A DNA stretch of 64,000 nt from Candidatus Wirthbacteria bacterium (GTDB lineage Bacteria > Patescibacteriota > CG2-30-54-11): positions 6,000 to 69,999 of the forward strand of contig CAISZI010000042.1 in NCBI GenBank assembly GCA_903889905.1, given 5' to 3'. Below the pieces are notes generated by a model, which was not told the origin of the DNA, did not search any database, and saw nothing but the letters and a program-made list of their open reading frames with translations. Positions 33,348 through 53,006 of the stretch are shown here, one piece after another (position 1 is the first letter of the stretch; each line of letters opens with the position of its first letter). A program made the position numbers and the translations under genes.

Positions 33348-33352
33348 AATAA

Positions 33353-35780: not shown

Positions 35781-36179
35781 TTAGGCTGACTTAACCCGGT
35801 CAAAGACAAAAATTCTCAGTAACGTATAGGAAACCAGCGCCAGTGGGAAAACGAGGATAAATTGCGAGAGATAGGCATTTGGAATCCAATGGTGTATGAG
35901 CCTGAGGCAAATAATGTCGATCACATAATAAACTGCATAAACGCCAAAAAAACGGAGGATCAGACGATTGCTTTGGTTTTTGAACACCAGGGCACCAGTT
36001 GTTTTGAAATTAAACATCACCCCAATGATGGTTGAGAACAACACAGCCAGGAAATCAGGCAAGCCCAAACGTGTAAATAACGCATACATGACATAGCCAA
36101 ATGCTGTGTTCAGGAGGCCCACGAACAAAAACTTCACAAAACGAAGACGAAAAAACCGCACAAGCTTGTCTCTAGTCAA
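35781..36179 (-). CDS. gtrA: GtrA-family membrane protein (polyprenyl-phosphate-sugar flippase accessory).
   Basis: 132 aa with 4 TM. It has a GtrA-like N-terminus (FVKFLFVGLLNTAFGYVMYALF) and overlaps the upstream GtrB-like GT2 by 8 nt. Confidence 0.75.
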   Translation of the reverse strand: MTRDKLVRFFRLRFVKFLFVGLLNTAFGYVMYALFTRLGLPDFLAVLFSTIIGVMFNFKTTGALVFKNQSNRLILRFFGVYAVYYVIDIICLRLIHHWIPNAYLSQFILVFPLALVSYTLLRIFVFDRVKSA

Positions 36180-37122
36180 AATTAATCCTTTCTTTTTCGA
36201 TTACCAGCGGACGCTTGCGCACCTGAAAGTGGATAGCACTGATATATTCGCCGATCAGACCCAGAAACAACAACTGCACGCCAGAAAAGAAAAACAAGGC
36301 GATCACGATCGTCGCAATCCCTGGAGAAGCAAATTTCTGGTAAAAAACCAGATTAAAGAAAAACTGGATTACCGCGTAGGAAAAGCTAAGAAAAGCAATA
36401 ATAACACCAAACAGCATACAAAGCCTCAGCGGTGCATTGGAAACTGAAACGAGACCATTAAGGCCCAAATCCATCATCACCAGCAGGTTGCCCTTGGCTT
36501 TGCCTTTGTCACGGCGCAGGTGGGAGTAATTCAACCCAATCGCATCAAAGCCGCATTGTGCAATCAACCCTCGGGTATAGGGGTAGTAATCGTCAAACTG
36601 GCGCAGGGAATTTAAGACGACCTTGTCCAGCAGCTGAAAATCGCCAACGTCTTTGGGGATTTCCACTTCCGATAGTTTTCCCAACACCCGGTAATAAATC
36701 TTGCGAAGATTCTTGATCAGGAACTTTTCGGCACGCTGCGCACGGATGCCGTAGACAACCTTGTATCCTTCTTCCCATTTCTTCACGAACTCCGGAATAA
36801 TGGCAGGCGGATCTTGCAAATCAGCCGCGATCGTGAAAACCACTGCATCGCCTTGCGCGCTCATGAGGCCATTAAAACCCGAACGGGATGCGCCAAAGTT
36901 ACGGGAATTCAGAATAACTTTGACATGTTTGTCTTTGGCCGCCAGGCCGCGTAATAGCGCGGCGGTATTATCCAGCGAAGCATTGTCACAAAAAATATGT
37001 TCATAGTCGTATTGCGGCAGTTGCTTGTCAAATACCTGTTTGACCGCCGCATAACAATCTGCCACGTTCTCCTGTTCATTGTAAACAGGAGTAATGATGC
37101 TGATCAATCGACGCTGTGCCAT
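36172..37122 (-). CDS. Polyprenyl-phosphate glycosyltransferase, GT2 (GtrB/ArnC-like).
   Basis: 316 aa. It has ISIITPVYNE, a DNASLD motif, DxD-region similarity, and two C-terminal TM helices typical of ArnC/GtrB. Confidence 0.85.
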   Translation of the reverse strand: MAQRRLISIITPVYNEQENVADCYAAVKQVFDKQLPQYDYEHIFCDNASLDNTAALLRGLAAKDKHVKVILNSRNFGASRSGFNGLMSAQGDAVVFTIAADLQDPPAIIPEFVKKWEEGYKVVYGIRAQRAEKFLIKNLRKIYYRVLGKLSEVEIPKDVGDFQLLDKVVLNSLRQFDDYYPYTRGLIAQCGFDAIGLNYSHLRRDKGKAKGNLLVMMDLGLNGLVSVSNAPLRLCMLFGVIIAFLSFSYAVIQFFFNLVFYQKFASPGIATIVIALFFFSGVQLLFLGLIGEYISAIHFQVRKRPLVIEKERINFD

Positions 37123-37131: not shown

Positions 37132-38238
37132 TTAGTATTTAAGTTGAGCGAGCAGCAAATCACAAACAAAATCAATGTCAGCTTTGTCGAGATTCAATGC
37201 TGCTGGCAACGAAATGCCTCTCTTTTCGACACTCAAAGCCACGGGATTAGGGAAACGCTGTTCGTGCACTGGGAACCGGCTCATTTGGGGAAACCCTGGC
37301 CTGGCATGGATATTGTTAGCCTTAAAAGTCTTCAAGATTTCGTCACGATTGGTCGTGATCGAGTCTTCGAGCAGGATGGACGGATAGGTGTAGATACTGC
37401 GATTGCCAGCTTTTTCACGGATCATTTTGATCCCTCGGACATCACCCAGACGCGCTTCGTACCACTTAAAATAGTTACGTTTCATCTCGATCAATTCTTC
37501 AATGCGTTCCACCTGAGAAAGGGCCAGGGCCGCGGTCAGGTTGGCGATGGTGTACTGGTATCCCAAAGAATCAGACCAAAAAATAGCCTGAGAATCGGTG
37601 CGTCCCATGGATGAAAGCAGCTGGGCTTTTTTGAACAGTTCTTCATTGTTGGTCACCAATATACCACCTTCGCCGCTCGCGGCGATCTTGGCGCCCTGAA
37701 AGCTGAAGCAACCAATATCTCCAAACGTCCCGACTTTTTGGCCCTGAAATTCAGCACCCAGCGAAGGCGCAGCATCTTCAATTACTTTTAAATTATGTTC
37801 TCGGGCGATCGCCATAATCTCGTCCATCTGGGCGGGATTTCCAAAAGTGTGCACCAACATGATGGCTTTTGTTTTGGGGGTGATCGCTTTTTTGATGGCT
37901 GCGGGATCAATGCACCAGGAGTCGGGTTCAATGTCCACAAAAACTGGTGTCGCACCGGTATAATCAATCGCATACGACGTGGCTACCCAACTGAAATCGG
38001 TACAAATCACTTCATCCCCAGCCTTCAAGTCAAGCGTGGCGCAGGCTAAATGCAAAGCCAGCGTACAACAATGGGTTGCAATCGCGTATTTCGTGCCAAT
38101 GTAATCACACACGGCTTTTTCCAATTTTTTGGTATGCTGATCATAAGTTTCATAAAAACCATTGATAGTGCCATCAATCACATAATCAATTTCTTTTTGC
38201 GTGATGGAAGGACCGGCGAATGCAATCTTTTTAGCCAT
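37132..38238 (-). CDS. DegT/DnrJ/EryC1/StrS-family sugar aminotransferase (ArnB/PseC-like).
   Basis: 368 aa. The fold type-I PLP motif around FSFQGAKIAASGEGGILV, with the Lys in FSFQGAK, is typical of nucleotide-sugar aminotransferases. Confidence 0.9.
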   Translation of the reverse strand: MAKKIAFAGPSITQKEIDYVIDGTINGFYETYDQHTKKLEKAVCDYIGTKYAIATHCCTLALHLACATLDLKAGDEVICTDFSWVATSYAIDYTGATPVFVDIEPDSWCIDPAAIKKAITPKTKAIMLVHTFGNPAQMDEIMAIAREHNLKVIEDAAPSLGAEFQGQKVGTFGDIGCFSFQGAKIAASGEGGILVTNNEELFKKAQLLSSMGRTDSQAIFWSDSLGYQYTIANLTAALALSQVERIEELIEMKRNYFKWYEARLGDVRGIKMIREKAGNRSIYTYPSILLEDSITTNRDEILKTFKANNIHARPGFPQMSRFPVHEQRFPNPVALSVEKRGISLPAALNLDKADIDFVCDLLLAQLKY

Positions 38239-38247: not shown

Positions 38248-39414
38248 TTATAATTTAATTTTGCTTAATTTGGCACAAGCCTGGTCAATGACTTTTTCGT
38301 CTTTACCAAAGCAGAATCGCACAAAGTTATCCCCCATGGCATCGTGATAAAAAGCGTTGCCAGGGACAGTCGCGACACCCGTTTGACGCAAGAGATTCAT
38401 GGCTCGGTCTTTCCCGTCTTTTCCCGCAATCTTGCTGACATCTGCCAGGATATAATAGGCGCCCTGCGGAACAAACGGGGTCAAACCAATATCAGTTAAA
38501 GTTGAACAGAGTTGGTCTCTGATCGCCCCAAAGCGGTGACTGATCTGCTGATAATACTCCTCGCTGAGGTGATTGATTCCACTGACGACGCCCATTTGCA
38601 GCGGTGACGGGGCACAGACATAGACCAGATCATTGATAAAACCAATTGTCTCTTTCCACTTTGCATCGCACAAACAATACCCAATGCGCCAGCCCGTGAT
38701 GCTGTAGGCCTTAGAATAGCCGGAAATGGTGATTGTCCTGTCCTGAATGCGAGGATCCGTTGCCGGGCTGATGTGCTTGTGTTTATCATAAACAAAATAC
38801 TCGTAGATTTCATCGGTGAAGATGAACAAATCATGCCGGATACAAAAATCCGCCAGCAAATCCAGTTCCGCCTGACTAAAAACTTTGCCACAGGGATTGG
38901 CAGGGGTGTTGATCATGATGGCTTTGGTATGTGGTGTGATGACTGCTTCCAAAGCTTGAAGGCTGAAAGTCCAGTCTGGCGGATGCATGCGCACGAAGAC
39001 AGGGACAGCCCCGGCCGCCGCAAGGGTATTGATGTGATAGCCATAGTAAGGCTCAAAGATAATAACCTCATCGCCGTCATTGAGGAGCGCCAGACAGGCA
39101 GAATAAAACGCCCCTGTCGCGCCACCCGAGACGATCACATTCTTCTCGGGATCGACTTTGAGGTGGTTAAAACTTTCGCATTTGCGCGCAATGGCTTCGC
39201 GAATTTCAGGCAGCCCATCGTACCGGGTATAAAAATTATACCCAGCTTCGATGGCGTCATGGGCGCCCTTTTTGACAATTTCCGGAACGTCCATGTCACA
39301 GACGCCCTGGGAAAGATTGATCCCTCCCATGGCATCACATTCGATCGACATGTTGCGGATTTCGGATTGCACCAGAAGTTCGGAACGCCTGCTGATCGTC
39401 AGTTTGGAATTAGT
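38248..39414 (-). CDS. Class I/II PLP-dependent aminotransferase (aspartate aminotransferase family).
   Basis: The start is set at MTNSKLTISRR (39414), giving a 4-nt ATGA overlap with the GNAT gene. The SGYSKAYSITGWRIGY PLP-lysine region is present. Confidence 0.8.
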   Translation of the reverse strand, partial: TNSKLTISRRSELLVQSEIRNMSIECDAMGGINLSQGVCDMDVPEIVKKGAHDAIEAGYNFYTRYDGLPEIREAIARKCESFNHLKVDPEKNVIVSGGATGAFYSACLALLNDGDEVIIFEPYYGYHINTLAAAGAVPVFVRMHPPDWTFSLQALEAVITPHTKAIMINTPANPCGKVFSQAELDLLADFCIRHDLFIFTDEIYEYFVYDKHKHISPATDPRIQDRTITISGYSKAYSITGWRIGYCLCDAKWKETIGFINDLVYVCAPSPLQMGVVSGINHLSEEYYQQISHRFGAIRDQLCSTLTDIGLTPFVPQGAYYILADVSKIAGKDGKDRAMNLLRQTGVATVPGNAFYHDAMGDNFVRFCFGKDEKVIDQACAKLSKIKL

Positions 39415-40048
39415 CATGAGAAAACTCCATGAAAACGTTATAACGCTTAATTTCACCCGTGTAACCTGCGGGCACTGGTATCCATTCGACATGGTCGGCA
39501 GAGGGATTGAGGAATAATGGTTCGCGTCTGACTTCAACAAAGTTCAGTTGAGCATAAAGTTTAAGCGCTCTTTCGTTGTCTGATGTCGTTTCCAGCGTAT
39601 AGGTTGAGAGACCCAGAGTTTCCTTGCCCCAGGCCATCATCTGTAAAATTGCGCTCCCCATGATCCCTGGAAAGCCCTTTTCACCACGCACGATATTGTC
39701 AATTTCGCAGCTATTGTTGGCAAAATTAAAACGAAACAAGCCTACGTGGCCAATGAAATTATCTCCAACTTTGATCATAAACAAGAGGCGATCTGGGGCA
39801 CCAATCACGCCACTTTGAAACCAGCGTGTCGTTCGTTCCAGAGAAACCGGGAAGATGGCCTGAAACCAGGACTCATTATCCTTGCGCCATTTACCCAGCA
39901 ATGTCATCATCCCCACATCCATCTCGCAATCCCGCGTCAACAAGACCAACTGGTAGGCGGTTGCATTCAGAGAACAAGGAATGACAACCTCACCAAACCG
40001 GGTGTCCTTGAGTTGCTTGATTTGGGCGAGAATTTGGTCTTGGTTCAT
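39410..40048 (-). CDS. GNAT-family N-acetyltransferase.
   Basis: 212 aa with GNAT motif A around GHVGLFRFNFANNSCEIDNIVRGEK. Confidence 0.75.
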   Translation of the reverse strand: MNQDQILAQIKQLKDTRFGEVVIPCSLNATAYQLVLLTRDCEMDVGMMTLLGKWRKDNESWFQAIFPVSLERTTRWFQSGVIGAPDRLLFMIKVGDNFIGHVGLFRFNFANNSCEIDNIVRGEKGFPGIMGSAILQMMAWGKETLGLSTYTLETTSDNERALKLYAQLNFVEVRREPLFLNPSADHVEWIPVPAGYTGEIKRYNVFMEFSHD

Positions 40049-40049
40049 T

Positions 40050-41858
40050 TTAGCCTTTCTGGCTGTTTAAATCTTTTTGGTTAACCATTTCCCTGGCAAT
40101 CTCATCACGGTCGAGAAAAGGAAACATGTCTTCGTATGGCCGCGAGACCAACGTTCCATCCGCTAACTTTTCGGACGACACGCGAGGAATCAGCAGTTGC
40201 CACTCGGGCGTCATGACATCGCAGATCACTGGCCCGTCATCGTCCATCACCTCTTTGAGTTTGGCATCAACCTCAGCTACCGACTCAATCCGGACAGCTT
40301 TGATGCCATACGCTGCGGCAATTTTCATTGAATCCGGGCACCAGACGCCTGAGGTCGGCCCTTCTCCAAACAATCGCCCTTCCATGAAATTTTTCTGGGT
40401 GTGGCGGATAAGCAAGTACCCGTTGTTATTAAAAATGATTACCTTGATGGGCAAATTGTTGTGCTTGATCGTTGCCAGTTCCTGCAAATTCATCTGCAGA
40501 CTCCCATCCCCGGTAATGACAATGGTGCGCCGGCGATCATTGGCCAGGCAGGCACCAATTGCGGCAACCCAATACCCCATGGAAGACAATCCTCCCGTGG
40601 TCAAAAACCGTTGATTCTGCTTTATTTTCCAGGTCTGACAAGCAACGTGGAAGCAAGAGCCCGTGTCGACCAGGATCATGTCGTCCTGCGTAGCGGCTTG
40701 TGAAAGCTTGTCGGTGAAGTAGTACGAATTGACCGGTTTTTCATCGACGTAAGCAGGCAAAACAACCGGATAGGTCGTTTTCCAGTGATTACATTTATCG
40801 ACCCACGCGTTGAAGTCGGGTTTGGTTGTCAGCTTGGCTGAAGCACGATTGAGATTTTGCAGAAACACCTTGGCGTCGCACTGGATCTTGAGTGCGTCGT
40901 CAAAACCAGGCTTGTATAATTCCTCGGTGTCGATATCAACAATCACCTTGCGTGCTGTTTTGGCAAAGTTCTTCAGATCATGCCCAACCAGCGCTGTGGC
41001 TAGACGACAGCCAACCGTAATCATGGCATCGGCATTCTGAATGGCAAAGTTGGCCGCTCGTTCACCATATGTTCCTGGCCTGCCAACATAAAGCCGGTTG
41101 TCGCTGGCGATAATATCGATCCCCAACCGTGAGGTCAATACCGGAATGTTGAGCTGTTTGAGGGTAACCATCAATTCTTCAATCGCGTTCGCTATGCGCA
41201 CCCCATGTCCGACCAGCAAAATCGGACGTTTGGAGGTGGTGATGATATCCAGAACTTTGACAATTTCTTCCTGCATCAACTCCATATTTGTCGTTTCCGG
41301 TGGCGGGATAAATTCCTCCAGCACTTTGTTAGGAACTTCCATGCGCTGCACATCCAACGGGACATCCACCCAGACTGGCCCGGGACGACCGGTAGTCGCC
41401 AGGTAATAGGCTTTTTGCATGTAATAAAGAATTTTGGCGGGGTCATCAACGGTGACAAAAAACTTGGTCGCGCGTTCGACAAACGGTTTGATTAAAATGC
41501 CCTGGATACCATACTGACGAATTTTGGTTTTTTCCTGGTATTGCACGAATGACAAAGGTGCCTGCCCAGAGACCACCATCATGGGTGATGAATCCGTCCA
41601 GCCACCTGCCAACCCGTTGATCACGTTCATGCTTCCTGGTCCGGCCGTGACCAGAGCCAATCCCAGTTTGCCGGTAAGGCGACCATAAGCATCCGCTGCC
41701 ATTCCGGCAGACTGTTCATGGTGCGTACAAATAGACTGGAAATTCTTGTTCTGGAATAAAGCATCGTTTAAAAACATAGCTTGGCCACCGGTCACCAAAA
41801 AGCAGGTATTTACTCCCTTTTTGGCCAGGAAATCAAAGATAAAATCGGCAACGCGCAT
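40050..41858 (-). CDS. Thiamine-pyrophosphate-dependent enzyme of the acetolactate-synthase large-subunit family (YerE-like carboligase candidate).
   Basis: 602 aa with all three TPP-enzyme domains. The TPP-binding motif is ITGDGSLQMNLQELATI...NN. Confidence 0.85.
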   Translation of the reverse strand: MRVADFIFDFLAKKGVNTCFLVTGGQAMFLNDALFQNKNFQSICTHHEQSAGMAADAYGRLTGKLGLALVTAGPGSMNVINGLAGGWTDSSPMMVVSGQAPLSFVQYQEKTKIRQYGIQGILIKPFVERATKFFVTVDDPAKILYYMQKAYYLATTGRPGPVWVDVPLDVQRMEVPNKVLEEFIPPPETTNMELMQEEIVKVLDIITTSKRPILLVGHGVRIANAIEELMVTLKQLNIPVLTSRLGIDIIASDNRLYVGRPGTYGERAANFAIQNADAMITVGCRLATALVGHDLKNFAKTARKVIVDIDTEELYKPGFDDALKIQCDAKVFLQNLNRASAKLTTKPDFNAWVDKCNHWKTTYPVVLPAYVDEKPVNSYYFTDKLSQAATQDDMILVDTGSCFHVACQTWKIKQNQRFLTTGGLSSMGYWVAAIGACLANDRRRTIVITGDGSLQMNLQELATIKHNNLPIKVIIFNNNGYLLIRHTQKNFMEGRLFGEGPTSGVWCPDSMKIAAAYGIKAVRIESVAEVDAKLKEVMDDDGPVICDVMTPEWQLLIPRVSSEKLADGTLVSRPYEDMFPFLDRDEIAREMVNQKDLNSQKG

Positions 41859-41878
41859 ACCATCCTCACAATTAAAAA

Positions 41879-42934
41879 TTACGACAAGGCTTCTAACTGA
41901 TAGCTGATATTATCGTCTTTTTTGCGTTCCGCCAACTCCATGGCGACTTCCACGATAAAATCTTCCTGCCCGCCAATGATTTTGCGACGTCCAAGTTCGA
42001 CAAAAATATCCCGGGCATCCACACCAAACCGTTCCGCCGCTTTTTTGACATGCGGAGCAAACGCCGAGAAAACGCCTGCCATGCCACTGATCAGGCTGAT
42101 CGTAGTAATTTCCTGCGGCTTCTGCATCAAAGCAGTCACCACTTGCTCACTGACATCCATAAGTTGATACAAATTCAGACCGGTTTCAATCTGTTCCTTG
42201 ACTAGCAGTCCAGCCAGAACCTCAAGCTGACAGTTGCCTGCGCCAGCACCCAGCCCGCGTAATGTACCGTCAATAATTGTCGCCCCAGCCTTAATCGCTG
42301 TATAAGAATTTGCCACGGCCAAACTTAGATTGTTGTGCGCGTGAAAACCAACCGGTATTTGCAGGCCAGCGACGAGCGTCTGCACCGTCGTGGTAACCAT
42401 TTCCGGCAATGATGCTCCAGCCGAATCCATCAAAATCACCCCGAGGGCGCCGTAACTTTGCATTTTGAGCGCTTCTTCCAAAAGCTTGGGTGGGGTTGCC
42501 ATGTGATACATCATCAGCACACCATAAGCCTCCTTACCCTGCTCGCGCACAAATTCAATGTGCTGGCGAGTGACATCGGCTTCGGTACAATGCGTACCGA
42601 TACAAACCAGATCAACGCCAGCAGCAAGCGCTGGAGCCAAATTTTCCTTGATCGTACCAAACCCGGGAATCATAAATGTCCCCAATCTGGTTTGCTGCAG
42701 TTGACGACGAGCGGCCGTAAGCATCTCCAAATCAGTGGTTTTGGACAATCCAACCTGTAGCGACGATGCACCAAGTCCATTGCCGTGGCCGACGATAATT
42801 GTATGCAAACCAGCACCTTCCGCCTGGCTGCAGTAGACCGTGATCTGGTCAGTCGTGAGCTGATGCCCGATCGCATGTGATCCGTCCCGTAACGTAGAAT
42901 CAAAAAAAAGCGTTTTACCCATACTCATTCCCAA
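41879..42934 (-). CDS. 4-Hydroxy-2-oxovalerate aldolase family (DmpG/BphI/MhpE-like).
   Basis: 351 aa. It has the HMGL-like/DRE-TIM N-terminus (FFDSTLRDGSHA) and the C-terminal DmpG communication domain. Confidence 0.85.
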   Translation of the reverse strand: MGMSMGKTLFFDSTLRDGSHAIGHQLTTDQITVYCSQAEGAGLHTIIVGHGNGLGASSLQVGLSKTTDLEMLTAARRQLQQTRLGTFMIPGFGTIKENLAPALAAGVDLVCIGTHCTEADVTRQHIEFVREQGKEAYGVLMMYHMATPPKLLEEALKMQSYGALGVILMDSAGASLPEMVTTTVQTLVAGLQIPVGFHAHNNLSLAVANSYTAIKAGATIIDGTLRGLGAGAGNCQLEVLAGLLVKEQIETGLNLYQLMDVSEQVVTALMQKPQEITTISLISGMAGVFSAFAPHVKKAAERFGVDARDIFVELGRRKIIGGQEDFIVEVAMELAERKKDDNISYQLEALS

Positions 42935-43807
42935 CTAAGCTAAAATTTTGTAACGGGCATATTTTTCGGCAATGCTCACGGCCCCGCAGGTAATAATATC
43001 CAGATTCCCTGAGTATTTGGGCAAAAAATCACCCAAGCCAACGACTTCCACCGTGGTTGTCACGCGACCATTTTCAAAAACAGGTTCTACTGTAACTTTG
43101 TAACCTGGCACGTATTGTTGCACGCTTTTGACAATAGCCGCAATTTCCACCTTCAGTAAATCGATTTTGGGTTGAGGGATCTGTGCGTAAACCGTATTGC
43201 GCATGATCACCGGCGGTTCTGCGGGATTGAGGATGATGATTGCTTTGGCTCTAGGTACGCCAGTAAACGCCACAATTGCGTCCCGGGTTGTCTGGGTGAA
43301 CTCGTCAATGTTGGCACGGGTGCCGGGCCCTGCGGATTTGGAGGCAATACTGGCAACAATTTCAATGTACTCAATTTCGGGGTGAACTTTCATGTAGGCA
43401 TAGGCAATCGGTATAGAACCCTGGCCACCGCAAGTAATCAGATTGATATTTTTTTCGCTCAGGCACTCGTCGCCGTTTAACACTGGTACGCACATTTTAC
43501 CGATCTGGGACGGTGTCAGGTCAATCGCAAATTTGTTCAGTTTGGCCAGGATCGGGGCATTCGTCTGATGGACTTTGGCGGAGGTTGCGTCAAAAACAAT
43601 CTCGCAACAATTGGGGTTGTCTTCAATGGCTTTAATCGACTCACACGAAGTGGGAACGCCCATGCTCTGAGCACGCTTAATTCCTTCGGAATCCGGATTC
43701 CGGCCAGCGAACATCCCACATTCCAGGATTTCCGATCGGAGCACTTTGAATAACAAATCCGTACCGATATTGCCTGTACCAATAATGCCAACCTTTACTT
43801 TGTCCAT
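42935..43807 (-). CDS. Acetaldehyde dehydrogenase, acetylating (DmpF/MhpF/BphJ-like).
   Basis: 290 aa. It has KVGIIGTGNIGTDL and the catalytic Cys in NLITCGGQ, and is adjacent to the aldolase as in dmpFG. Confidence 0.88.
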   Translation of the reverse strand: MDKVKVGIIGTGNIGTDLLFKVLRSEILECGMFAGRNPDSEGIKRAQSMGVPTSCESIKAIEDNPNCCEIVFDATSAKVHQTNAPILAKLNKFAIDLTPSQIGKMCVPVLNGDECLSEKNINLITCGGQGSIPIAYAYMKVHPEIEYIEIVASIASKSAGPGTRANIDEFTQTTRDAIVAFTGVPRAKAIIILNPAEPPVIMRNTVYAQIPQPKIDLLKVEIAAIVKSVQQYVPGYKVTVEPVFENGRVTTTVEVVGLGDFLPKYSGNLDIITCGAVSIAEKYARYKILA

Positions 43808-44898
43808 GTCACCAATCTAGCAGTCGCTAATTTAATATAATCTCGCAGCTGTTCAATACTACTTGTTCTTTTGTTCAGATAAAACGCTTTATACCACTCT
43901 GCTGTTTTTAGCATGGATTCATTCAAGGCCAGCACTGGATCCCATGACAGGTAGCGGTGAGCCTTGGAACAATCCAACTGCAGCAAATTTGCCTCATGCA
44001 GGCCCGAATAATTTTGAATATTATATTGAATAGCGTTCCATTCGTGTTGCATCGCTTTGACGATTACTTCCACCGACAGATTGTCACTCGCCTCTGGCCC
44101 AAAATTCCAAGCCTCTGCATATTCTTTCCTGCCCTCTAACAGCTTCTGTCCAAGTAACAAATAACCGGAAAGTGGCTCCAATACATGTTGCCACGGTCGT
44201 GTTGAAGCTGGATTGCGCAATGTCACAGGTTGCCCTTTACTTGCCGCCCTCATAATATCAGGAATTAGGCGGTCCTCAGCCCAATCTCCGCCACCAATCA
44301 CATTCCCAGCCCGTGCGCTGGCAATCAAGACATTGTGTTTGCGACCAAAGTCCTGCAAATTGAAGAAGGAATTTCGATACGCTTGTGTCACCAGTTCCGC
44401 ACAACCTTTGGAGGAACTATAAGGATCAAATCCACCCATGGAATCGGTTTCCCGATAGCCCCAGACCCATTCTTTATTGTCATAGCATTTATCGCTGGTC
44501 ACAATCACAACCGCTTTGACCGAATCAATCCGACGGCATGCTTCGAGGACATTAACGGTACCCATGATGTTGGTCGAATATGTCTCAACCGGCTGCTCGT
44601 AAGACTTTCGCACCAGTGGCTGGGCTGCCAGATGGAAAATTATCTCCGGTTTGAAATCACTCACTGCTGCCGTTAAACGCTCCAAATCCCGGATATCGGC
44701 GATCTCAGACTTCATCTCTAGGTCGAGCAGATTAAAATGATTGGGCTCAAAATTTGGGTCCAGAGCATAGCCCATCACCTCTACGCCCATTTCCCTGAGC
44801 CACAAACAAAGCCACGATCCTTTAAATCCGGTATGCCCGGTGACCAAGACTTTTTTCCCATCATATATTCCACCAAACAGGTCTACCAGTTTTTCCAT
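43795..44898 (-). CDS. ddhB: CDP-glucose 4,6-dehydratase.
   Basis: It has VLVTGHTGFKGSWLCLWL and an SDKCYDNKE (YxxxK) motif. The start is set at MEKLVDLFGG (44898). Confidence 0.88.
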   Translation of the reverse strand: MEKLVDLFGGIYDGKKVLVTGHTGFKGSWLCLWLREMGVEVMGYALDPNFEPNHFNLLDLEMKSEIADIRDLERLTAAVSDFKPEIIFHLAAQPLVRKSYEQPVETYSTNIMGTVNVLEACRRIDSVKAVVIVTSDKCYDNKEWVWGYRETDSMGGFDPYSSSKGCAELVTQAYRNSFFNLQDFGRKHNVLIASARAGNVIGGGDWAEDRLIPDIMRAASKGQPVTLRNPASTRPWQHVLEPLSGYLLLGQKLLEGRKEYAEAWNFGPEASDNLSVEVIVKAMQHEWNAIQYNIQNYSGLHEANLLQLDCSKAHRYLSWDPVLALNESMLKTAEWYKAFYLNKRTSSIEQLRDYIKLATARLVTWTK

Positions 44899-45653
44899 GG
44901 GGCCTTGCCTTCGTTCCAAATCTGATCCAACTTTTGTTTGTCGCGTAGCGTATCCATACATTGCCAAAAGCCATGATGTTTGAAGGTAAAGAGTTCACCT
45001 TGCGTCGCCATTTGTTCGAGTGGTTGCCGCTCCCAGATCATATCATCCCCAACGATAGAATCCAACGCGTCAGCTTCACAAACAAAAAACCCACCGTTTA
45101 TCCATGATGCATCCCCTTTGGGTTTTTCCAAGAAAGCCGAGACTCGTCCATTGTCCTCAATCTGCAATGATCCAAATCTTCCTTCGGGTTGCACGGCTGT
45201 CAGGGTAACTTTTTTGCCATGAGCACGGTGGAACTTGACCAAGTCAGGTATGTTCACATCAGCAACGCCATCGCCATAGGTGAGCAAAAAGCTTTCGTCA
45301 TTCAGATATTCTTTGGCCCGTTTGAGTCGTCCACCGGTCATCGTATTTAAGCCGGTATCCAACAGCGTTACTTTCCATGATTCGGAAAAGGAATGATGCG
45401 TTGTCATCTGGTCGGTTTTGAGATCAAACGTGACATCACTATTGTGCAAAAAATAATTGGCAAAATACTCCTTGATGACATATCCGCGGTAACCCAGGAG
45501 CACGACAAAATCATTATAACCATAGCTCGCATAATTCTTCATGATATGCCACAGAATCGGCTTTCCACCAATTTCCACCATGGGTTTGGGTTTCAGTTCG
45601 GTTTCTTCACTGATGCGTGTCCCCAGTCCACCTGCCAGGATAACCACTTTCAT
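44883..45653 (-). CDS. ddhA: Glucose-1-phosphate cytidylyltransferase.
   Basis: The start is set at MKVVILAGGLGTR (45653), with the GGLGTRISEETELKPKPMVEIGGKPILWHIM motif. Confidence 0.88.
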   Translation of the reverse strand: MKVVILAGGLGTRISEETELKPKPMVEIGGKPILWHIMKNYASYGYNDFVVLLGYRGYVIKEYFANYFLHNSDVTFDLKTDQMTTHHSFSESWKVTLLDTGLNTMTGGRLKRAKEYLNDESFLLTYGDGVADVNIPDLVKFHRAHGKKVTLTAVQPEGRFGSLQIEDNGRVSAFLEKPKGDASWINGGFFVCEADALDSIVGDDMIWERQPLEQMATQGELFTFKHHGFWQCMDTLRDKQKLDQIWNEGKAPWKNW

Positions 45654-45682
45654 CTTGGATTCCTCATGTAAATGGGTTGAAT

Positions 45683-46366
45683 CTATTGCCAATCATCGGT
45701 GATGACATGTTCTCCGCTCACCCCATGCCCTGTCAAAAACTGTTTGAAACTCCGGATCATCAGAGGCGGGCCAGAAACAAAATACGTGGTCCCGCTCCCG
45801 TGCTGCTCGAGGATTTTGGCGATATTAATCACGCCGCTTACGTCCTGTTGCGTCACATCAACGACAAAACCAGGATTAATAACTTTGGCGCGAGCGAAAT
45901 CATCCTGATACAAATGATAGGCAGCTGAGCGTACGCCCAGGTAAAGTTGTGGATTGATGTAGCTCGCAAATTCAGTACTGGTAAACAGTGACAAATAGGG
46001 TGTCACGCCTGTCCCACCTGCAATAAACACACAATTGCCCTGGTCATGCCCATGGTCAAACAACTCCCCAAATGGCAACTTGAGCCAAACCAGCACACCA
46101 GGACGCAGCTCGCTTGCCATCCGTTTTGTGAATTCCCCCTTGGCGGCAAACGTAATACGGATTAGTTCTTCATCAGGGTTAGATTGCATGGAAAAGCAGC
46201 GCGAATCCGGCCATGGCATGGTTGGATCATATTTTTCCAGCGCCAAATGCAGAAACTGGCCCGGCCGGTAGTCAAAGCGTCGCTCCGTGGACCGCAATTT
46301 GACCACATAGATATTGTCGATCACAATGTCGATGGCTTCGACCTGGCTTAAATATTTACGAATCAT
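45683..46366 (-). CDS. FNR-like FAD/NAD(P)-binding oxidoreductase. It is an E3-like CDP-6-deoxy-delta-3,4-glucoseen reductase module with no 2Fe-2S ferredoxin domain.
   Basis: 227 aa with RCFSMQS (RxYS-type FAD) and GGTGVTP (NAD) motifs. There is no N-terminal Cys cluster. Confidence 0.65.
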   Translation of the reverse strand: MIRKYLSQVEAIDIVIDNIYVVKLRSTERRFDYRPGQFLHLALEKYDPTMPWPDSRCFSMQSNPDEELIRITFAAKGEFTKRMASELRPGVLVWLKLPFGELFDHGHDQGNCVFIAGGTGVTPYLSLFTSTEFASYINPQLYLGVRSAAYHLYQDDFARAKVINPGFVVDVTQQDVSGVINIAKILEQHGSGTTYFVSGPPLMIRSFKQFLTGHGVSGEHVITDDWQ

Positions 46367-47664
46367 GCCCGATCCTTGATGAAATCTGCTACCATTTCCC
46401 CTACATAAGCTATCATCTCCGTCGTCAGACCAGGATAAACACCCAGGAAAAAGGACTGATTCATAACAAAATCGGTTTGTTCGAGGCTACCTGCAACACG
46501 AAAGTTACGGTCAATGAACGCCGGTTGCCGGATGATATTCCCGGCGAAGATATTGCGGGTTTCAATCCGTTTGCTGTTCAGGAATTTGACAAAATCTTCA
46601 CGGCTAAACGGCGCATCCGGGCACACAGACAGGATAAAGCTAAACCAGGCTGGATCACTGTTGGGTGTTGCCTGTGGTAGAACAAAGTACTTGGGATACT
46701 TGGCAAACAGTTCATAATATGCGGCAAAATTTTGTTTGCGTTTTTCACAAAAAGCCGGCAATTTGTCCATCTGGGCAGAACCGATCGCGGCTTGCATCTC
46801 AGTCATTTTGAGGTTATAGCCAATTTCAGAATAAACATACTTGTGGTCATACCCCAGCGGCAATGTGCCAAACTGCTGGCTAAACCGTTTGCCGCAGGTA
46901 TTGTTCTCGCCACCCGCGCAGTAGCAGTCACGGCCCCAGTCTCGGAACGAACGGACAATCCGCGCCAGCTGATCGTCGCTGGTAACAATGGCGCCGCCTT
47001 CACCAGTTGTGATGTGATGCGCAGGATAGAACGAAATCGTCGACAAATGACCAAAAGTCCCGGTCAGCTTACCATGATAACGGCTGCCAAAAGCGTCGCA
47101 ATTGTCTTCCACCAGCCACAGTTTCTTGTCCCGGACAATTTCCAGAATTGGCTCCAGATCATAGGGGTTACCAAGCGTATGCGCCAAAAAGATACATTTT
47201 GTTTTGTCAGTAAGGGCGGCCTTCAAAGCGTTGACATTAACATTGTATGTGGGCAACTCAACGTCGACAAAAACGGGAATCATCTGGTTCTGCAGGATTG
47301 GTGTGACGGTGGCCGGGAACCCTGCCGCGACAGTAATCACCTCATCACCAGGCTGCAAAGCTCTATCCCCAAGTTTCCGCGAAGTGAGAGCAGAAAAGGC
47401 CAACAAATTGGCTGAGGACCCCGAGTTGGTCAGAATAACGTTCGCAACTCCCAGAAAATCACTGATCTTCTGGGCAAATTCCTCGCTGAACCGACCTTCG
47501 GTTAACCAGAAGTCCAAACTGGCGTCAACGGCATTAATAATCTCTTTTTCGTCAAAAACACGACCCGCGTATTTGACACCATTTTTCATTGGATTATTGT
47601 CACCCAACCCAAAATTTTCATCATAATATTGTTTGACAAGCGCTCTAATCTGATCACGCAACAT
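46363..47664 (-). CDS. ddhC: CDP-6-deoxy-D-xylo-4-hexulose-3-dehydrase (E1, RfbH/DdhC), PMP-dependent.
   Basis: 433 aa of the DegT fold. The active site carries His in place of the PLP-Lys (YPAHHITTGEGG). It also has the E1-type Cys motif DCYCAGGENNTC (C-x-C-x7-C) for a 2Fe-2S cluster. Confidence 0.88.
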   Translation of the reverse strand: MLRDQIRALVKQYYDENFGLGDNNPMKNGVKYAGRVFDEKEIINAVDASLDFWLTEGRFSEEFAQKISDFLGVANVILTNSGSSANLLAFSALTSRKLGDRALQPGDEVITVAAGFPATVTPILQNQMIPVFVDVELPTYNVNVNALKAALTDKTKCIFLAHTLGNPYDLEPILEIVRDKKLWLVEDNCDAFGSRYHGKLTGTFGHLSTISFYPAHHITTGEGGAIVTSDDQLARIVRSFRDWGRDCYCAGGENNTCGKRFSQQFGTLPLGYDHKYVYSEIGYNLKMTEMQAAIGSAQMDKLPAFCEKRKQNFAAYYELFAKYPKYFVLPQATPNSDPAWFSFILSVCPDAPFSREDFVKFLNSKRIETRNIFAGNIIRQPAFIDRNFRVAGSLEQTDFVMNQSFFLGVYPGLTTEMIAYVGEMVADFIKDRA

Positions 47665-47934
47665 AATTTAACCCATTGATGGAAATTAACAAAAGGCAGT
47701 TTATAATATTTCCTCCCATAACGCCACAGTATTTATTCACTCAAGCTGAGTAAACATTGCCAACATTTTGTCTCCCCAATTCGAACAAACAAATGTAGCT
47801 ACCTCAATTTTTAAACCCTAGGATTTCACACTTTTTGCGGCTTCATCCAATGGAATGTATGTTAGAATTGAATGAAATAATAGATTTAAATTAAATTTTG
47901 TATTTGATACTTATGAACATTTAATCAATAAAAA
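47665..47934 (-). promoter_or_regulatory. AT-rich 270-bp non-coding gap inside the glycan locus. It probably holds the promoter for the ddh/TPP operon.
   Basis: There is no ORF on either strand, and -10-like TATTATAAA elements are present upstream of ddhC. This is the only sizeable intergenic gap in a 33 kb co-directional locus. Confidence 0.3.
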
Positions 47935-48876
47935 TCAATTTGACCGAAAATTAAGCAACCTCAGTTCATAGTTAAAATGGTGGATTTTGACACAAGTATC
48001 TAAGATTACACCAATATTAAGAGAAATAAACGATATCAACATAAATCCAGTTGCCAATATTGCCGAAGGAACTTTGTGGATATAATGGGTTTCAATAAAT
48101 TCAAGCATCACTGGGTAGCCAACAATCAAACCAAACAGCATAAAAATAGCTGCCGCAGAACAAAAAAATGAAAGGGGTCGATAATCTTTAAATATTGAAA
48201 AAATCATTTTCAAAACTCTCGCACCATCTTGAAAAGTATTAAGCTTCGAACTGCTCCCCTGCGGACGGTCTTTAAAATCGATTGGTATTTCAATAATCCG
48301 AAAACGTTTATCAAGCGCATGCAATGTCATTTCCGTTTCAAGTTCAAAACCGTTTGAGAGGATTGGATAATTTTTAACAAAACGCTTACTAAATACACGA
48401 TAGCCGCTCATAATGTCTTTGAGATTGGCTTTAAATAAAAAATTGATTAATGAATTTACCAGTTGATTACCAAATTGATGGAATTTACGTTTATTTTCAT
48501 TTTGATATAAACCATTACTTTGACGATCGCCAACCACCATATCACAGTTACCTTCAGTCACTGGCCGAATTAATGCACGCACTGAATGCATCGGATATGT
48601 CGAATCCGCATCGACCATCACATAGATATCCGCATTAATTTGGGTAAAAGCCCGCCTGACGGCAAAGGCCTTGCCCTGTTGCGCCTCAAACAAAACCTCG
48701 CCATTTGTTTCCGGATTTGCCTTAAAAAACTGCTTGGCAATCGCGTTTGTTTGATCGGTTGAGTTATTGTCGATTACATAAATCTCTGCCTCCGGCAAGT
48801 GCGACCTGATATCTTTCAAGGTTGAAAGCAATGTTAATTCTTCATTGTATGCGGGGACGATTATGGCTATTTTCAT
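47935..48876 (-). CDS. GT2 polyprenyl-phosphate glycosyltransferase (GtrB-like) with C-terminal TM helices.
   Basis: The start is set at MKIAIIVPAYNEE (48876), with IDNNSTD and VDADSTY (DXD) motifs and two C-terminal TM helices. Confidence 0.8.
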   Translation of the reverse strand: MKIAIIVPAYNEELTLLSTLKDIRSHLPEAEIYVIDNNSTDQTNAIAKQFFKANPETNGEVLFEAQQGKAFAVRRAFTQINADIYVMVDADSTYPMHSVRALIRPVTEGNCDMVVGDRQSNGLYQNENKRKFHQFGNQLVNSLINFLFKANLKDIMSGYRVFSKRFVKNYPILSNGFELETEMTLHALDKRFRIIEIPIDFKDRPQGSSSKLNTFQDGARVLKMIFSIFKDYRPLSFFCSAAAIFMLFGLIVGYPVMLEFIETHYIHKVPSAILATGFMLISFISLNIGVILDTCVKIHHFNYELRLLNFRSN

Positions 48877-48907
48877 ATAATCTAAGATTAATAATCGAAT
48901 ACAAACT

Positions 48908-51140: not shown

Positions 51141-53006
51141 TTAAAACTTCAATCCAGAAGCCGGACACGATACAGGCATAACTTGCAGTGAACCGAACTC
51201 AACCGCCTGATTGAATTCGATCTTAATTGTGTGATTCAACTGATTTAAATACTGCCCCAGATCGATGTCAATCCCAATGGATTTATTATCACTTTCGGCA
51301 TGCAGGCATTTTCCCAGAAGTCGCGTGCCTTCAGTGTATAAGTACACTTCTAAGACTTCAATTGTACGCGTCAAATCATTGGAAAACTTAACTGTAGAAG
51401 GAATGGGCTTACCCAGCCAGACAGATCCTGAATGCTGCCCGACATAATTATATTTGAATACATAACTATCATTCAGTGAAATTCCGGCCAGCAGACCATT
51501 CTTGTTTGTCAAATTTGCCTCAACAAGATTGAACTCATGTCCTGTTTCCTGATAGAAAAAATACTTGTTCGTCCATTTGTAAGTCATCATCCAGCTATAT
51601 GTGCTGTAATAAACATCAGGAATTTGTGTCAAAACCAAAATTTGATTTGAACTTAAATCATTTGGAATAAGATCGTGATGCAAGGCATCGCTCAAGAGCT
51701 GCTTGGGATATAAAAAATCCGAATTCAGTTTATCGACGACCATCCAATTGCTGAAAGTATTAACAAGCTGCACATACATAAGGATGACGGCAATACCCAC
51801 AACCAACCCGGTTCGAATGAATCGGGATTTGATCAAAACAAGGAAAACATTGATCAAGCAGGCTGAAAATAATAGCAGCCCAAAACTCTGAAAATAAACC
51901 GGGATATAACCATATCCCCAAAGAAGCTCGCTCTGGTATTTAACCGAGACAGACAAGATGGCAGCAGGCAGGATCCAAAACGATGCTCCGATTAGTAGCA
52001 GTAGTCGTTTGTTTTGCAACTTCCCCATTTTTAATGCAAAAAATATAAACGATAGTCCAGTTAGTACCGCTGCAAATTTTTCTCTGGCATTTACTGCCGA
52101 AACCGTCAGAATGGTTTTAATCAGGTTGGGATTGGTCGCCCATACATAACTCAATGGCAAGGTCGCACTAAGTTGTTTTAAAAAAGTAATCCAAACCTGA
52201 TCGTTCAAAACAAAACTTGTCCCGATATAGGAACTGGATTGACTTACATGCAAACGAAGTTGGTAATTAATCAATAAAACCACGCCGAAAGGGATCAAGT
52301 AACATAAAATCACAACCAATTTCCTTTTTTTATCCTTGATTAATCCCAAAATACAAAACACCACCAATAGAATAAATCCAAATGAAAGCTCATACATGAG
52401 CAAAGCACTAATATAAAAGAAGATACTCAGTAACAGGAAAAAAATACTTGTTTTTTTTACGTAAAAATATAAAAAAATCAGTGAGAGACAGATAAACAGA
52501 AATAGTACCTGCATCAAAGTGGCATATCCTAGAAGCGCATCGTGATAGATCCTAAATTGAAAAAAAATCGTGACCACCGCCATTAACAGAAAACTAAAAA
52601 ACTTATCGCGGCAAAGCTGGTAAACAAAATATCCAAACAAGGCAATATTCAAAAGTGTCAGCAACAGAATGACTGATTTATAGATAATAAAGTTTGATAA
52701 AAAATAGTAAACCGATTGCGTCAAGATAACAGTAATTGGGAAGAAGCGGCCACTCAACTGAATCCACATATCATTGTTTTGTTGAATTGATTGTCCCAGA
52801 TTAATGCCATTCAATTTAATTATCGTCCGCAACAATGAATTCGGAATGTCATCGGCATAGTAACCACTTTTTAACAGTGGGAAAATTGTCAGGACAACAA
52901 ATCCCATCAAAAAGAAAAAAATATAAAGATCTATTCGCTTCAACAAAATCTCTATTCTTTTCATTGTTGACAGCAATTTGCCTTCCTGTCGCGGAATCAA
53001 ATTCAC
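51141..53006 (-). CDS. Polytopic membrane protein, probable GT-C-fold glycosyltransferase.
   Basis: 621 aa with many TM helices. The first predicted loop carries SGYYADDIP, a DD motif as in ArnT/PMT-type GT-C enzymes. A C-terminal soluble domain follows. Confidence 0.55.
   Translation of the reverse strand: MNLIPRQEGKLLSTMKRIEILLKRIDLYIFFFLMGFVVLTIFPLLKSGYYADDIPNSLLRTIIKLNGINLGQSIQQNNDMWIQLSGRFFPITVILTQSVYYFLSNFIIYKSVILLLTLLNIALFGYFVYQLCRDKFFSFLLMAVVTIFFQFRIYHDALLGYATLMQVLFLFICLSLIFLYFYVKKTSIFFLLLSIFFYISALLMYELSFGFILLVVFCILGLIKDKKRKLVVILCYLIPFGVVLLINYQLRLHVSQSSSYIGTSFVLNDQVWITFLKQLSATLPLSYVWATNPNLIKTILTVSAVNAREKFAAVLTGLSFIFFALKMGKLQNKRLLLLIGASFWILPAAILSVSVKYQSELLWGYGYIPVYFQSFGLLLFSACLINVFLVLIKSRFIRTGLVVGIAVILMYVQLVNTFSNWMVVDKLNSDFLYPKQLLSDALHHDLIPNDLSSNQILVLTQIPDVYYSTYSWMMTYKWTNKYFFYQETGHEFNLVEANLTNKNGLLAGISLNDSYVFKYNYVGQHSGSVWLGKPIPSTVKFSNDLTRTIEVLEVYLYTEGTRLLGKCLHAESDNKSIGIDIDLGQYLNQLNHTIKIEFNQAVEFGSLQVMPVSCPASGLKF

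Follow-up and report, generated by a model that had tools for sequence, protein, structure and literature searches.

Branched 3,6-dideoxyhexoses that carry a hydroxylated side chain have a described counterpart in the erwiniose pathway of Pectobacterium atrosepticum SCRI1043, which combines ErwE, ErwF, ErwI and ErwJ with the ddh genes (Steitz et al. 2022, PMC9306805). ErwE is the ThDP enzyme, ErwI a BphI-like aldolase and ErwJ a BphJ-like acetaldehyde dehydrogenase; ErwE accepts 4-hydroxy-2-oxopentanoate, preferring the 4R acid, and rejects pyruvate (PMC9306805). In the known pathways the branch ketone is reduced by ErwF/YerF (PMC9306805). According to a 2025 review, the 2024 survey by Krug et al. 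lists more than 200 YerE-like clusters (PMC12247030). The core discussed below, an aldolase pair with a ThDP enzyme, has thus been known since 2022, and the initial annotation of this DNA was wrong in regarding the pair as foreign to sugar-nucleotide pathways and the arrangement as a new variant.

The locus found in the window (the whole stretch of 64,000 nucleotides analysed) is, by its sequence, a genuine operon of 12 genes, whose predicted product is a rare branched sugar of the cell surface. It spans 47664 to 35781 on the minus strand, and its 12 separate ORFs overlap or are spaced by no more than about 29 nt throughout. All seven genes previously claimed at 40050-47664 are present on that strand, as ORFs and profile matches attest, but none is fused to another. 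Transcription proceeds from E1/RfbH through the FNR-type reductase, ddhA, ddhB, the DmpF-like and DmpG-like genes and the ThDP gene to five more, so that the aldolase/dehydrogenase pair follows ddhB and precedes the ThDP gene, in the same packed operon, and is not downstream of the latter as had been stated. Nor does the operon end at 40050: the five further genes, co-directional and tightly packed, reach 35781. These overlooked aminotransferase, GNAT and Gtr genes are the part that differs from the known pathway. The features are:

47665..47934, minus strand: AT-rich intergenic region of 270 nt upstream of E1, a long non-coding gap
46363..47664, minus strand: E1/RfbH-type CDP-6-deoxy-L-threo-D-glycero-4-hexulose 3-dehydrase, 433 aa, first operon gene (NF011936)
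45683..46366, minus strand: FNR-type flavin reductase, 227 aa (PF00175)
44883..45692, minus strand: ddhA, glucose-1-phosphate cytidylyltransferase, ORF of 269 aa (TIGR02623)
43795..44967, minus strand: ddhB, CDP-glucose 4,6-dehydratase, ORF of 390 aa (TIGR02622)
42935..43807, minus strand: acetylating acetaldehyde dehydrogenase, DmpF/BphJ/ErwJ-like, 290 aa (TIGR03215, PF09290)
41879..42934, minus strand: pyruvate aldolase, DmpG/BphI/ErwI-like, 351 aa (TIGR03217, PF00682, PF07836)
40050..41858, minus strand: YerE/ErwE-like ThDP-dependent carboligase, 602 aa (three TPP_enzyme domains)
39410..40048, minus strand: GNAT N-acyltransferase, 212 aa (PF13302, PF00583)
38248..39417, minus strand: class I/II (YbdL/KAT-like) aminotransferase (PF00155, 220 bits)
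37132..38238, minus strand: DegT-type sugar aminotransferase, 368 aa (PF01041, 343 bits)
36172..37122, minus strand: GtrB/ArnC-like family-2 glycosyltransferase, 316 aa (PF00535)
35781..36179, minus strand: GtrA-family small membrane protein, 132 aa, putative flippase, last operon gene (PF04138)

The packed genes are bordered by just one long non-coding gap, 47665..47934, which probably holds the operon promoter, a weak assignment because a consensus promoter scan did not rise above chance. Just upstream of the operon lie a second GtrB-like GT2 (47935-48957) and two large membrane proteins.

E1 matches NF011936 with 672 bits (cutoff 423), and its residues 215-224 read AHHITTGEGG, confirming the active-site His that the initial annotation had pointed out. 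It carries the pattern Cys189-x57-Cys247-x-Cys249-x7-Cys257, which we take to be the [2Fe-2S] motif of E1, and has homologues with 48-58% identity in most related loci. For ddhA (TIGR02623, 416 bits, cutoff 300) the alignment begins at residue 14 and the start is probably the ATG at 45653; for ddhB (TIGR02622, 508 bits, cutoff 278) it begins at residue 34, with a probable start near 44898. E1, ddhA, ddhB and the DmpF-like and DmpG-like proteins all match their families at equivalog level. The reductase, whose start overlaps the E1 stop by 4 nt, matches PF00175 (E=1e-7) and, weakly, FAD_binding_8 and FAD_binding_6. Its earlier designation as E3-like is correct for the FNR-type FAD/NAD domains, but the 227-aa protein has these domains only, with just two Cys, and therefore does not have the [2Fe-2S] ferredoxin domain found in true E3. 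Among the fetched loci its sole homologue is in L035 (35% identity), likewise adjoining E1. We consider this E3-like protein without the [2Fe-2S] domain the probable electron donor to E1.

The acetaldehyde dehydrogenase matches TIGR03215 with 390 bits (cutoff 282), its homologues (53-75% identity) immediately precede the aldolase in every related locus, and it would run towards acetaldehyde. The aldolase matches TIGR03217 (383 bits, cutoff 286), has the DmpG communication domain and finds its best solved relative in DmpG itself (1nvm, 265 bits); in DmpG numbering, it keeps the catalytic and metal residues R17, D18, H21, H200 and H202 while replacing Leu88 and Tyr291 of the catabolic enzyme by Phe. 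Of 17 aligned rows of linked aldolases, in which L002 and L004 duplicate L001 and L003, 16 share the Phe/Phe of the window aldolase; the remaining row, L043, has His/Phe. In BphI, Leu/Tyr at these positions enforce 4S specificity, and the variants L87W/Y290F and L87N/Y290F are 4R-specific (PMC3962088). The Phe/Phe of the linked aldolases resembles these engineered variants, and the 4-hydroxy-2-oxopentanoate made by the window aldolase is probably the 4R enantiomer.

The ThDP enzyme, with its GDG motif at residue 450, scores 384 against TIGR00118 (IlvB; cutoff 538) and stays under the cutoff of every AHAS model. Among solved proteins the YerE-like JanthE (8rph) comes closest, with 432 bits versus 266 for AHAS; the solved YerE homologue 5ahk reaches only 239 bits. 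The cluster has no room for a gene the size of ilvN, and there is no ilvN in the whole window. By its sequence, then, the enzyme is not an AHAS, and the bona fide IlvB with a nearby ilvN that would have refuted the initial annotation is not what the locus shows. It appears to be orthologous to ErwE, on the basis of synteny and of its relative JanthE. ThDP homologues with 64-71% identity always follow DmpF-DmpG, and the three genes are adjacent and co-directional in all of the approximately 20 non-duplicate related loci with upstream sequence (MAGs of Elusimicrobiota, Omnitrophota, Patescibacteria, Phycisphaerae, Clostridia and Proteobacteria), all among glycan genes. The search for the same order elsewhere that had been proposed thus returned it in many phyla, no aromatic-catabolism genes were present in these loci, and the packing of the pair within the operon speaks against separate transcription.

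The GNAT and the two aminotransferases follow the ThDP gene where an ErwF/YerF reductase usually sits, and tblastn gave no match to an ErwF/YerF-like (epimerase-fold) reductase in the window. Such a gene lies directly after, or within a few kb of, the ThDP gene in 18 of 20 ThDP-selected loci, the exceptions being L009 and L013; the window, L009, L013, L034, L035 and L050 lack it. The acyltransferase and both aminotransferases are common to L009, L013, L034 and the window; a minority of loci show this arrangement, and the distant L043 carries both the epimerase-fold gene and the aminotransferase set. GNAT orthologues (50-55% identity) occupy the equivalent position in L013, L019, L020, L033 and L034. 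The class-I aminotransferase, whose ORF extends to 39540 with a probable start at the ATG at 39417, has more than 577 metagenomic relatives; among solved proteins, YbdL and kynurenine aminotransferases match it best (about 200 bits). The DegT-type enzyme retains the catalytic Lys, is closest among solved proteins to perosamine synthetase (242 bits), and has orthologues (68-85% identity) directly after the class-I gene in L009, L013, L019, L020, L033, L034, L035, L037, L043 and L091. In L037 and L091 this pair neighbours acyl-activation genes, and no ThDP gene is visible; both contigs are short, and the ThDP gene may therefore sit just outside. The operon closes with one GtrB-like gene and one GtrA-like gene. 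The former shows hydrophobic C-terminal segments in its translation, has homologues (42-47% identity) in the canonical loci L006, L010, L017 and L018 and would load the sugar onto polyprenyl phosphate; the latter (PF04138, 58.7 bits, cutoff 26.1) has a start that shares 8 nt with the end of the GT2 gene.

We consider it likely that the operon makes an erwiniose-type C4-branched 3,6-dideoxyhexose, amino-tailored and handed to a lipid carrier. Glucose-1-phosphate would be converted by ddhA and ddhB into CDP-4-keto-6-deoxyglucose, from which E1 and the small FNR-type reductase would remove the 3-OH to give CDP-4-keto-3,6-dideoxy-D-glucose. In parallel, the DmpF-like enzyme would reduce acetyl-CoA to acetaldehyde and the DmpG-like aldolase would join this to pyruvate, giving 4-hydroxy-2-oxopentanoate, probably 4R. 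The ThDP enzyme would decarboxylate this acid and add a 3-hydroxybutanoyl unit to C4 of the keto-sugar; the supply of 4-hydroxy-2-oxovalerate by the pair, as initially proposed, matches the published ErwJ/ErwI/ErwE experiments (PMC9306805). These steps are predicted from gene families, conserved synteny and the biochemistry of the homologous Pectobacterium system. The later ones come from gene context only: the DegT-type enzyme would aminate the branch ketone, with the class-I aminotransferase in a supporting role, the GNAT would N-acetylate the amine, and the finished sugar would pass via the GtrB-like transferase to polyprenyl phosphate, to be flipped by the GtrA-like protein for attachment to a surface glycan. 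The most likely product is a 4-C-(3-hydroxybutanoyl)-3,6-dideoxyhexose with the branch ketone aminated and N-acetylated, these two modifications being conjectural. What may be new is the replacement of the usual final reductase by aminotransferases and an acetyltransferase. Overall, the initial functional reading stands, its novelty and gene order do not, and its E3 holds in part.

Some observations weigh against this pathway. The E1 partner is missing the [2Fe-2S] domain that an authentic E3 has, the scheme gives no reason for the second, amino-acid-type aminotransferase, and the genome could encode a reductase at another site. The epimerase-fold gene alongside the aminotransferase set in L043, and the aminotransferase pair of L037 and L091 with no visible ThDP gene, also count against it. 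The DegT-type enzyme might also aminate the ring C4 ketone instead of the branch ketone, because its closest characterised relatives, such as perosamine synthetase, are C4 aminotransferases of nucleotide 4-keto-6-deoxyhexoses. This leads to an unlikely alternative, that two sugars arise from one intermediate: DegT and GNAT would make a separate 4-acetamido deoxyhexose from CDP-4-keto-3,6-dideoxyglucose or CDP-4-keto-6-deoxyglucose, and the ThDP branch product would stay a ketone or be reduced by an unlinked reductase. Besides the perosamine synthetase match, the acyl-activation genes of L037 and L091 would fit a generic amino-sugar N-acylation module, and the GT2 and membrane proteins just upstream could serve a second sugar; but those two contigs are short enough for a ThDP gene to lie just beyond, and the packed operon closes with one GtrB/GtrA pair only. 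Moreover, a reductase would be expected to persist if the branch needed reduction, whereas it is missing from the window and the five loci listed above and present in the 18 of 20 without aminotransferases.

It is far less probable that the ThDP enzyme adds a two-carbon acetyl branch from pyruvate, the aldolase pair acting later or being unrelated. The founding member YerE does use pyruvate, and donor choice is promiscuous in the relatives JanthE and MyGE (PMC9306805, PMC12247030); however, aldolase action after branching was tested for ErwE and rejected, pyruvate not being accepted (PMC9306805), and the strict DmpF-DmpG adjacency to this ThDP clade in about 20 loci argues for a dedicated donor supply. 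The idea that a catabolic meta-cleavage module happens to neighbour a housekeeping acetolactate synthase draws on the good scores of the pair on catabolic DmpG/DmpF models and the partial AHAS match of the ThDP enzyme. There are no hydratase, hydrolase, dioxygenase or ilvN genes anywhere in the window, and the conservation of the trio within glycan loci across phyla, the sub-cutoff AHAS score and the Phe/Phe residues, at the positions that determine stereochemistry, effectively refute it, leaving it a negligible chance.

The preferred reading, an erwiniose-type branched sugar, can be set against the known systems. Like the erwiniose cluster, the window has ddh genes, a YerE-like ThDP carboligase, a BphI-like aldolase and a BphJ-like dehydrogenase, mutually adjacent; its predicted donor is also 4-hydroxy-2-oxopentanoate, and the Phe/Phe of the aldolase fits the 4R acid of ErwE. 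Unlike it, the window has no ErwF-like NAD(P)H reductase, with the GNAT and the class-I and DegT-type aminotransferases in that position, its E1 partner is a truncated FNR-type protein, its delivery appears to use a GtrB/GtrA pair, and its host is an uncultured Wirthbacteria-like bacterium, not an enterobacterium. Yersiniose A of Yersinia pseudotuberculosis (ddhA-D, YerE, YerF) shares the CDP-4-keto-3,6-dideoxyglucose acceptor and the ThDP enzyme class that attacks the C4 ketone, but YerE takes pyruvate to form a two-carbon branch, needing no aldolase/dehydrogenase pair, and YerF reduces the branch ketone. In the caryophyllose, gastriose and R. palustris CGA009 clusters (MMAR_2331/2332, MygI/MyGE) an aldolase-made hydroxylated 2-oxo acid likewise feeds a YerE-like ThDP enzyme, with no acetaldehyde dehydrogenase partner described; the caryophyllose aldolase, MMAR_2331, is of the aldolase/citrate-lyase family and not of the DmpG type, and the caryophyllose and gastriose donors are longer, giving C6 and C7 branches (PMC9306805). 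With the catabolic DmpG/DmpF and BphI/BphJ complexes the window pair shares the two-protein architecture, communication domain and catalytic residues, yet it stands in a glycan operon, has Phe/Phe in place of Leu88/Tyr291 and is predicted to work in the direction of synthesis.

The seven genes that the initial annotation had assigned to 40050-47664 are all present there, on the minus strand, as judged from family matches and from the motifs of E1, and belong to a larger set of twelve.

Genes of the operon in order of transcription, with family matches
47664-46363, minus: E1/RfbH (NF011936, 672 bits)
46366-45683, minus: FNR-type reductase, 227 aa (FAD/NAD-binding domain matches)
45692-44883, minus: ddhA (TIGR02623, 416 bits)
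44967-43795, minus: ddhB (TIGR02622, 508 bits)
43807-42935, minus: acetylating acetaldehyde dehydrogenase, DmpF-like (TIGR03215, 390 bits)
42934-41879, minus: 4-hydroxy-2-oxovalerate aldolase, DmpG-like, with DmpG communication domain (TIGR03217, 383 bits)
41858-40050, minus: ThDP enzyme, three domains (Pfam domains)
40048-39410, minus: GNAT
39417-38248, minus: class I/II aminotransferase
38238-37132, minus: DegT-type aminotransferase
37122-36172, minus: GtrB-like family-2 glycosyltransferase, 316 aa, with hydrophobic C-terminal segments (PF00535)
36179-35781, minus: GtrA-family protein, 132 aa, overlapping the stop of the GtrB-like gene (PF04138, 58.7 bits)

Transcription runs from E1 through the FNR-type reductase, ddhA and ddhB to the DmpF-like, DmpG-like and ThDP genes, which places the aldolase/dehydrogenase pair after ddhB and before the ThDP gene; it had been stated to lie downstream of the latter. 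The DmpF-like gene abuts the DmpG-like gene, which is separated from the ThDP gene by 20 nt, and no gene fusions were found in what had been described as a fused arrangement. Nor does the unit end at 40050: five further co-directional genes follow the ThDP gene, with overlaps or gaps of no more than about 10 nt, and the packing continues to 35781. An AT-rich gap of 270 nt lies upstream of E1. The operon call is based on this packing, because a scan for consensus promoters and terminators was uninformative, with counts near the shuffled expectation and not above chance. ddhA, ddhB and E1 all score above their equivalog cutoffs. In E1, the histidine cited as diagnostic falls within residues 215-224, and the protein also carries Cys189-x57-Cys247-x-Cys249-x7-Cys257, which we take to be the [2Fe-2S] pattern of E1.

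The reductase partner of E1 is less canonical. In the true E3 (AscD/DdhD), a plant-type [2Fe-2S] ferredoxin domain at the N terminus is joined to an FNR-like FAD/NAD domain. The 227-aa protein, which had been called an E3-like reductase, does have the FNR-type FAD/NAD domains, but Pfam detected no [2Fe-2S] ferredoxin domain in it and it has two cysteines in total, so it lacks the ferredoxin part of an authentic E3. In the canonical, reductase-containing loci of other genomes, a conserved 246-aa metallo-beta-lactamase-fold (MBL-fold) protein is encoded directly upstream of the DmpF-like gene.

Copies of the MBL-fold protein in canonical loci
L001: 7251-7991
L006: 3066-3803
L099: 5186-5929
L100: 5310-6050
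L101: 5304-6044
L102: 5286-6026

This protein, which might be a substitute for E3 in those loci, is absent from the window, where the FNR-type reductase is found instead.

The 602-aa ThDP enzyme is built of three ThDP domains and carries a GDG motif. Against the acetohydroxyacid synthase (AHAS) model TIGR00118 it scores 384 bits (cutoff 538), and all other AHAS models are likewise far below their cutoffs. Its best solved relative is JanthE (8rph, 432 bits), ahead of plant AHAS (266 bits) and PpYerE (239 bits), and the alignment to 8rph shows a CDG motif, the hallmark of JanthE (PMC12247030). No ilvN small subunit was found between 35781 and 48957, where the coding space is fully occupied by assigned genes and every other minus-strand ORF of 80 aa or more is nested inside them. 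Judged by its sequence, the ThDP enzyme is a YerE-like carboligase and not an AHAS. Its homologues number thousands (about 5,700), and the best 120, which are 66-71% identical, come from many phyla.

The initial annotation had suggested, as speculation, that the pair could make 4-hydroxy-2-oxovalerate as donor for the TPP enzyme, and the same route has been published for erwiniose, which is a 3,6-dideoxyhexose carrying a branch of four carbons. In Pectobacterium atrosepticum SCRI1043, the CDP-4-keto-3,6-dideoxyglucose genes have as neighbours those for a ThDP enzyme (ErwE, WP_011093010), a reductase (ErwF), a BphJ-like acetaldehyde dehydrogenase (ErwJ) and a BphI-like pyruvate aldolase (ErwI) (Steitz et al. 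2022, PMC9306805). In purified form, ErwE acted on the 4R enantiomer of 4-hydroxy-2-oxopentanoate, whereas pyruvate was not a substrate, and a route through ErwJ, ErwI and ErwE was proposed (PMC9306805), which a 2025 review repeats (PMC12247030). By analogy, 4-hydroxy-2-oxopentanoate is the predicted donor of the ThDP enzyme in the window. The feature is real and its core was correctly interpreted, but the novelty claimed for it fails, because the core represents one more case of a pathway published and biochemically supported in 2022 (PMC9306805). The 2025 review cites a 2024 in-silico survey (Krug et al.) that covers more than 200 YerE-like clusters (PMC12247030). While the core adds no new principle, the erwiniose-type route is shown here to be widespread in uncultured phyla, among them Patescibacteria and the related Wirthbacteria, the surface glycans of which are essentially unknown.

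In all fetched loci with upstream sequence, counted over about 20 related loci, the ThDP gene comes immediately after a DmpF-like and a DmpG-like gene (51-75% identity); a genome scan gave 14 loci from metagenome-assembled genomes (MAGs), Pectobacterium and the window's own genome not being among them. E1, ddhA and a 4,6-dehydratase are usually close by, within surroundings of glycan genes, and in the window ORFs that the Pfam scans covered, no hydratase, hydrolase or dioxygenase neighbours were detected. Since the ThDP enzyme is no AHAS and the closely packed trio is conserved in glycan loci, neither of the alternatives raised by the initial annotation, a genuine IlvB with its ilvN or a pair transcribed separately or belonging to aromatic catabolism, applies here. 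The ThDP enzyme and the aldolase/dehydrogenase pair are about 65-75% identical between the window and L001-L018 and L099-L102, loci from Elusimicrobiota, Omnitrophota, Patescibacteria, Phycisphaerae, Clostridia and Proteobacteria MAGs. The UvrA of the window is about 60-64% identical to those outside the Wirthbacteria-like group, and 74% to its best named match, from Candidatus Wirthbacteria. The higher identity of the trio than of UvrA across phyla thus points to horizontal spread of the module. One Patescibacteria contig (L003/L004, 7097-21779) carries three YerE-like ThDP paralogues in a single locus, one 67% identical and following DmpF-DmpG, the other two about 39% identical, together with a DHDPS-family aldolase and a NeuB-type synthase, which suggests that several different branched sugars come from this locus.

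Aligned to DmpG (1nvm), the aldolase of the window keeps Arg17, Asp18, His21, His200 and His202, and has Phe at both Leu88 and Tyr291 (DmpG numbering). Among 17 aldolase rows aligned from ThDP-linked loci, 16 share this Phe/Phe pair, a count in which L002 and L004 duplicate L001 and L003; L043 has His/Phe. In BphI, 4S specificity is imposed by Leu87 and Tyr290, and replacing both residues (L87W/Y290F or L87N/Y290F) gave engineered variants that use the 4R acid only (PMC3962088). By analogy with these variants, we infer that the ThDP-linked biosynthetic aldolases would make the 4R acid, the enantiomer that ErwE prefers. No mention of this Phe/Phe pair was found in the literature examined, and these aldolases represent an existing natural supply of biocatalysts with predicted 4R selectivity.

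The element that may be new is the tailoring, in which a reductase is missing, two aminotransferases and a GNAT are present and Gtr-type delivery follows, in the genome of a Wirthbacteria-like bacterium. Among 20 non-duplicate loci chosen through the ThDP enzyme, 18 have an epimerase-fold reductase gene, either directly after the ThDP gene (13 loci), which is the ErwF/YerF position, or a few kb away (5 loci). Besides ddhB, the window ORFs scanned with Pfam include no epimerase- or SDR-fold gene, and eight reductases from related loci gave no tblastn match to the window. The two exceptions, L009 and L013, encode an acyltransferase (hexapeptide in L009, GNAT in L013) and orthologues of both aminotransferases of the window, the DegT-type ones being up to 84% identical. 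Searching metagenomes with the class-I aminotransferase as seed, and hence with a bias towards it, added one locus with the full window gene set (L034) and three (L035, L043 and L050) in which other YerE-like enzymes and ddh genes accompany the aminotransferase pair.

We tentatively propose that in the window and a minority of loci the branch ketone would be aminated and then N-acetylated in place of being reduced, with the class-I enzyme as obligatory partner, to give a 4-C-(1-acetamido-3-hydroxybutyl)-3,6-dideoxyhexose. This proposal, which we consider quite possible but somewhat doubtful, is favoured by the complementary distribution of reductase and aminotransferases and by the single GtrB/GtrA pair at the end of the operon. 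The step is made less secure by L019, where the aminotransferase pair lies beside a NeuB-cupin gene, and by L043, where an epimerase-fold gene occurs together with the aminotransferase set. The DegT-type enzyme is most like C4 aminotransferases such as perosamine synthetase, and in two short contigs (L037 and L091) the pair sits beside acyl-activation genes with no ThDP gene visible, both of which would fit a second sugar, with a 4-acetamido group, that derives from the 4-keto intermediate common to both; set against the distribution and the lone GtrB/GtrA pair, we find this alternative unlikely. If amination and acetylation do take place at the branch ketone, they predict a new family of C-branched amino sugars, a cell-surface sugar class without prior description, and would provide a source of enzymes that aminate a hindered alpha-hydroxy ketone beside a tertiary alcohol. 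A literature search, with the 2024 survey of YerE-like clusters outside its reach, returned nothing relevant on described amino-branched sugars.

The class-I enzyme resembles an ordinary amino-acid aminotransferase (YbdL/KAT-like), with the PLP lysine and the C-terminal Arg visible. A specific tie to 4-hydroxy-2-oxopentanoate was considered and rejected, because loci that lack the aldolase pair also encode this enzyme (57-66% identity). Most of its metagenomic relatives (57-62% identity) sit in another conserved block (L053:6394-13638, L059:5504-13002; also L026, L074, L075, L084 and L088) consisting, in this order, of a PglC-like sugar transferase, a split transketolase/E1-dehydrogenase alpha/beta pair (ThDP), a DegT-type and a class-I aminotransferase and a PglF-like 4,6-dehydratase, for which no match to a described pathway was found. 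This hints at a wider, unrecognised theme of ThDP branching plus double aminotransferase in bacterial glycan synthesis.

Taken as a whole, the window represents a Wzm/Wzt-type glycan locus adjoining ftsQ/A/Z. Two large proteins of 737 and 621 aa (48908-51121 and 51141-53006, minus strand), hydrophobic by inspection of their translations and lacking any Pfam match, are encoded between another GtrB-like GT2 (47935-48957) and a double GT4 protein, in a stretch with a G+C of 0.38-0.42 (surroundings 0.47-0.53). Both are candidates for the GT-C-type transferase required by a Gtr-type system. At 56623-61020 (minus strand), a Wzm/Wzt ABC transporter pair, Wzt having a C-terminal carbohydrate-binding domain, is flanked by two methyltransferases, one of the FkbM type, a pattern consistent with a glycan that depends on an ABC transporter and carries a methylated chain terminator. 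The interval that separates the sugar operon from ftsQ/A/Z (31344-35657, minus strand) has genes for a DUF4012 protein, for a GT2 and for a CofD-family protein whose N terminus includes a membrane segment, and a single ORF of 3272 aa (3722-13540, minus strand) adjoins uvrA.

Compared with known systems, the window shares with the erwiniose pathway ddhA, ddhB, E1 and an E3-like reductase for CDP-4-keto-3,6-dideoxy-D-glucose, and a YerE-like ThDP carboligase directly adjoining a BphI-like aldolase and a BphJ-like dehydrogenase, but it has no ErwF/YerF-like NAD(P)H-dependent reductase for the branch ketone. Relative to AscD/DdhD, its reductase has the FNR domain but lacks the Fe-S domain, and is E3-like only. 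The aldolase has the catalytic and metal-binding residues of the catabolic DmpFG/BphIJ systems, from which it differs in having Phe/Phe for Leu88/Tyr291 and in the lack of hydratase, hydrolase and dioxygenase neighbours. As in Gtr-type delivery, a GtrB-like family-2 transferase is followed by a GtrA-family membrane protein.
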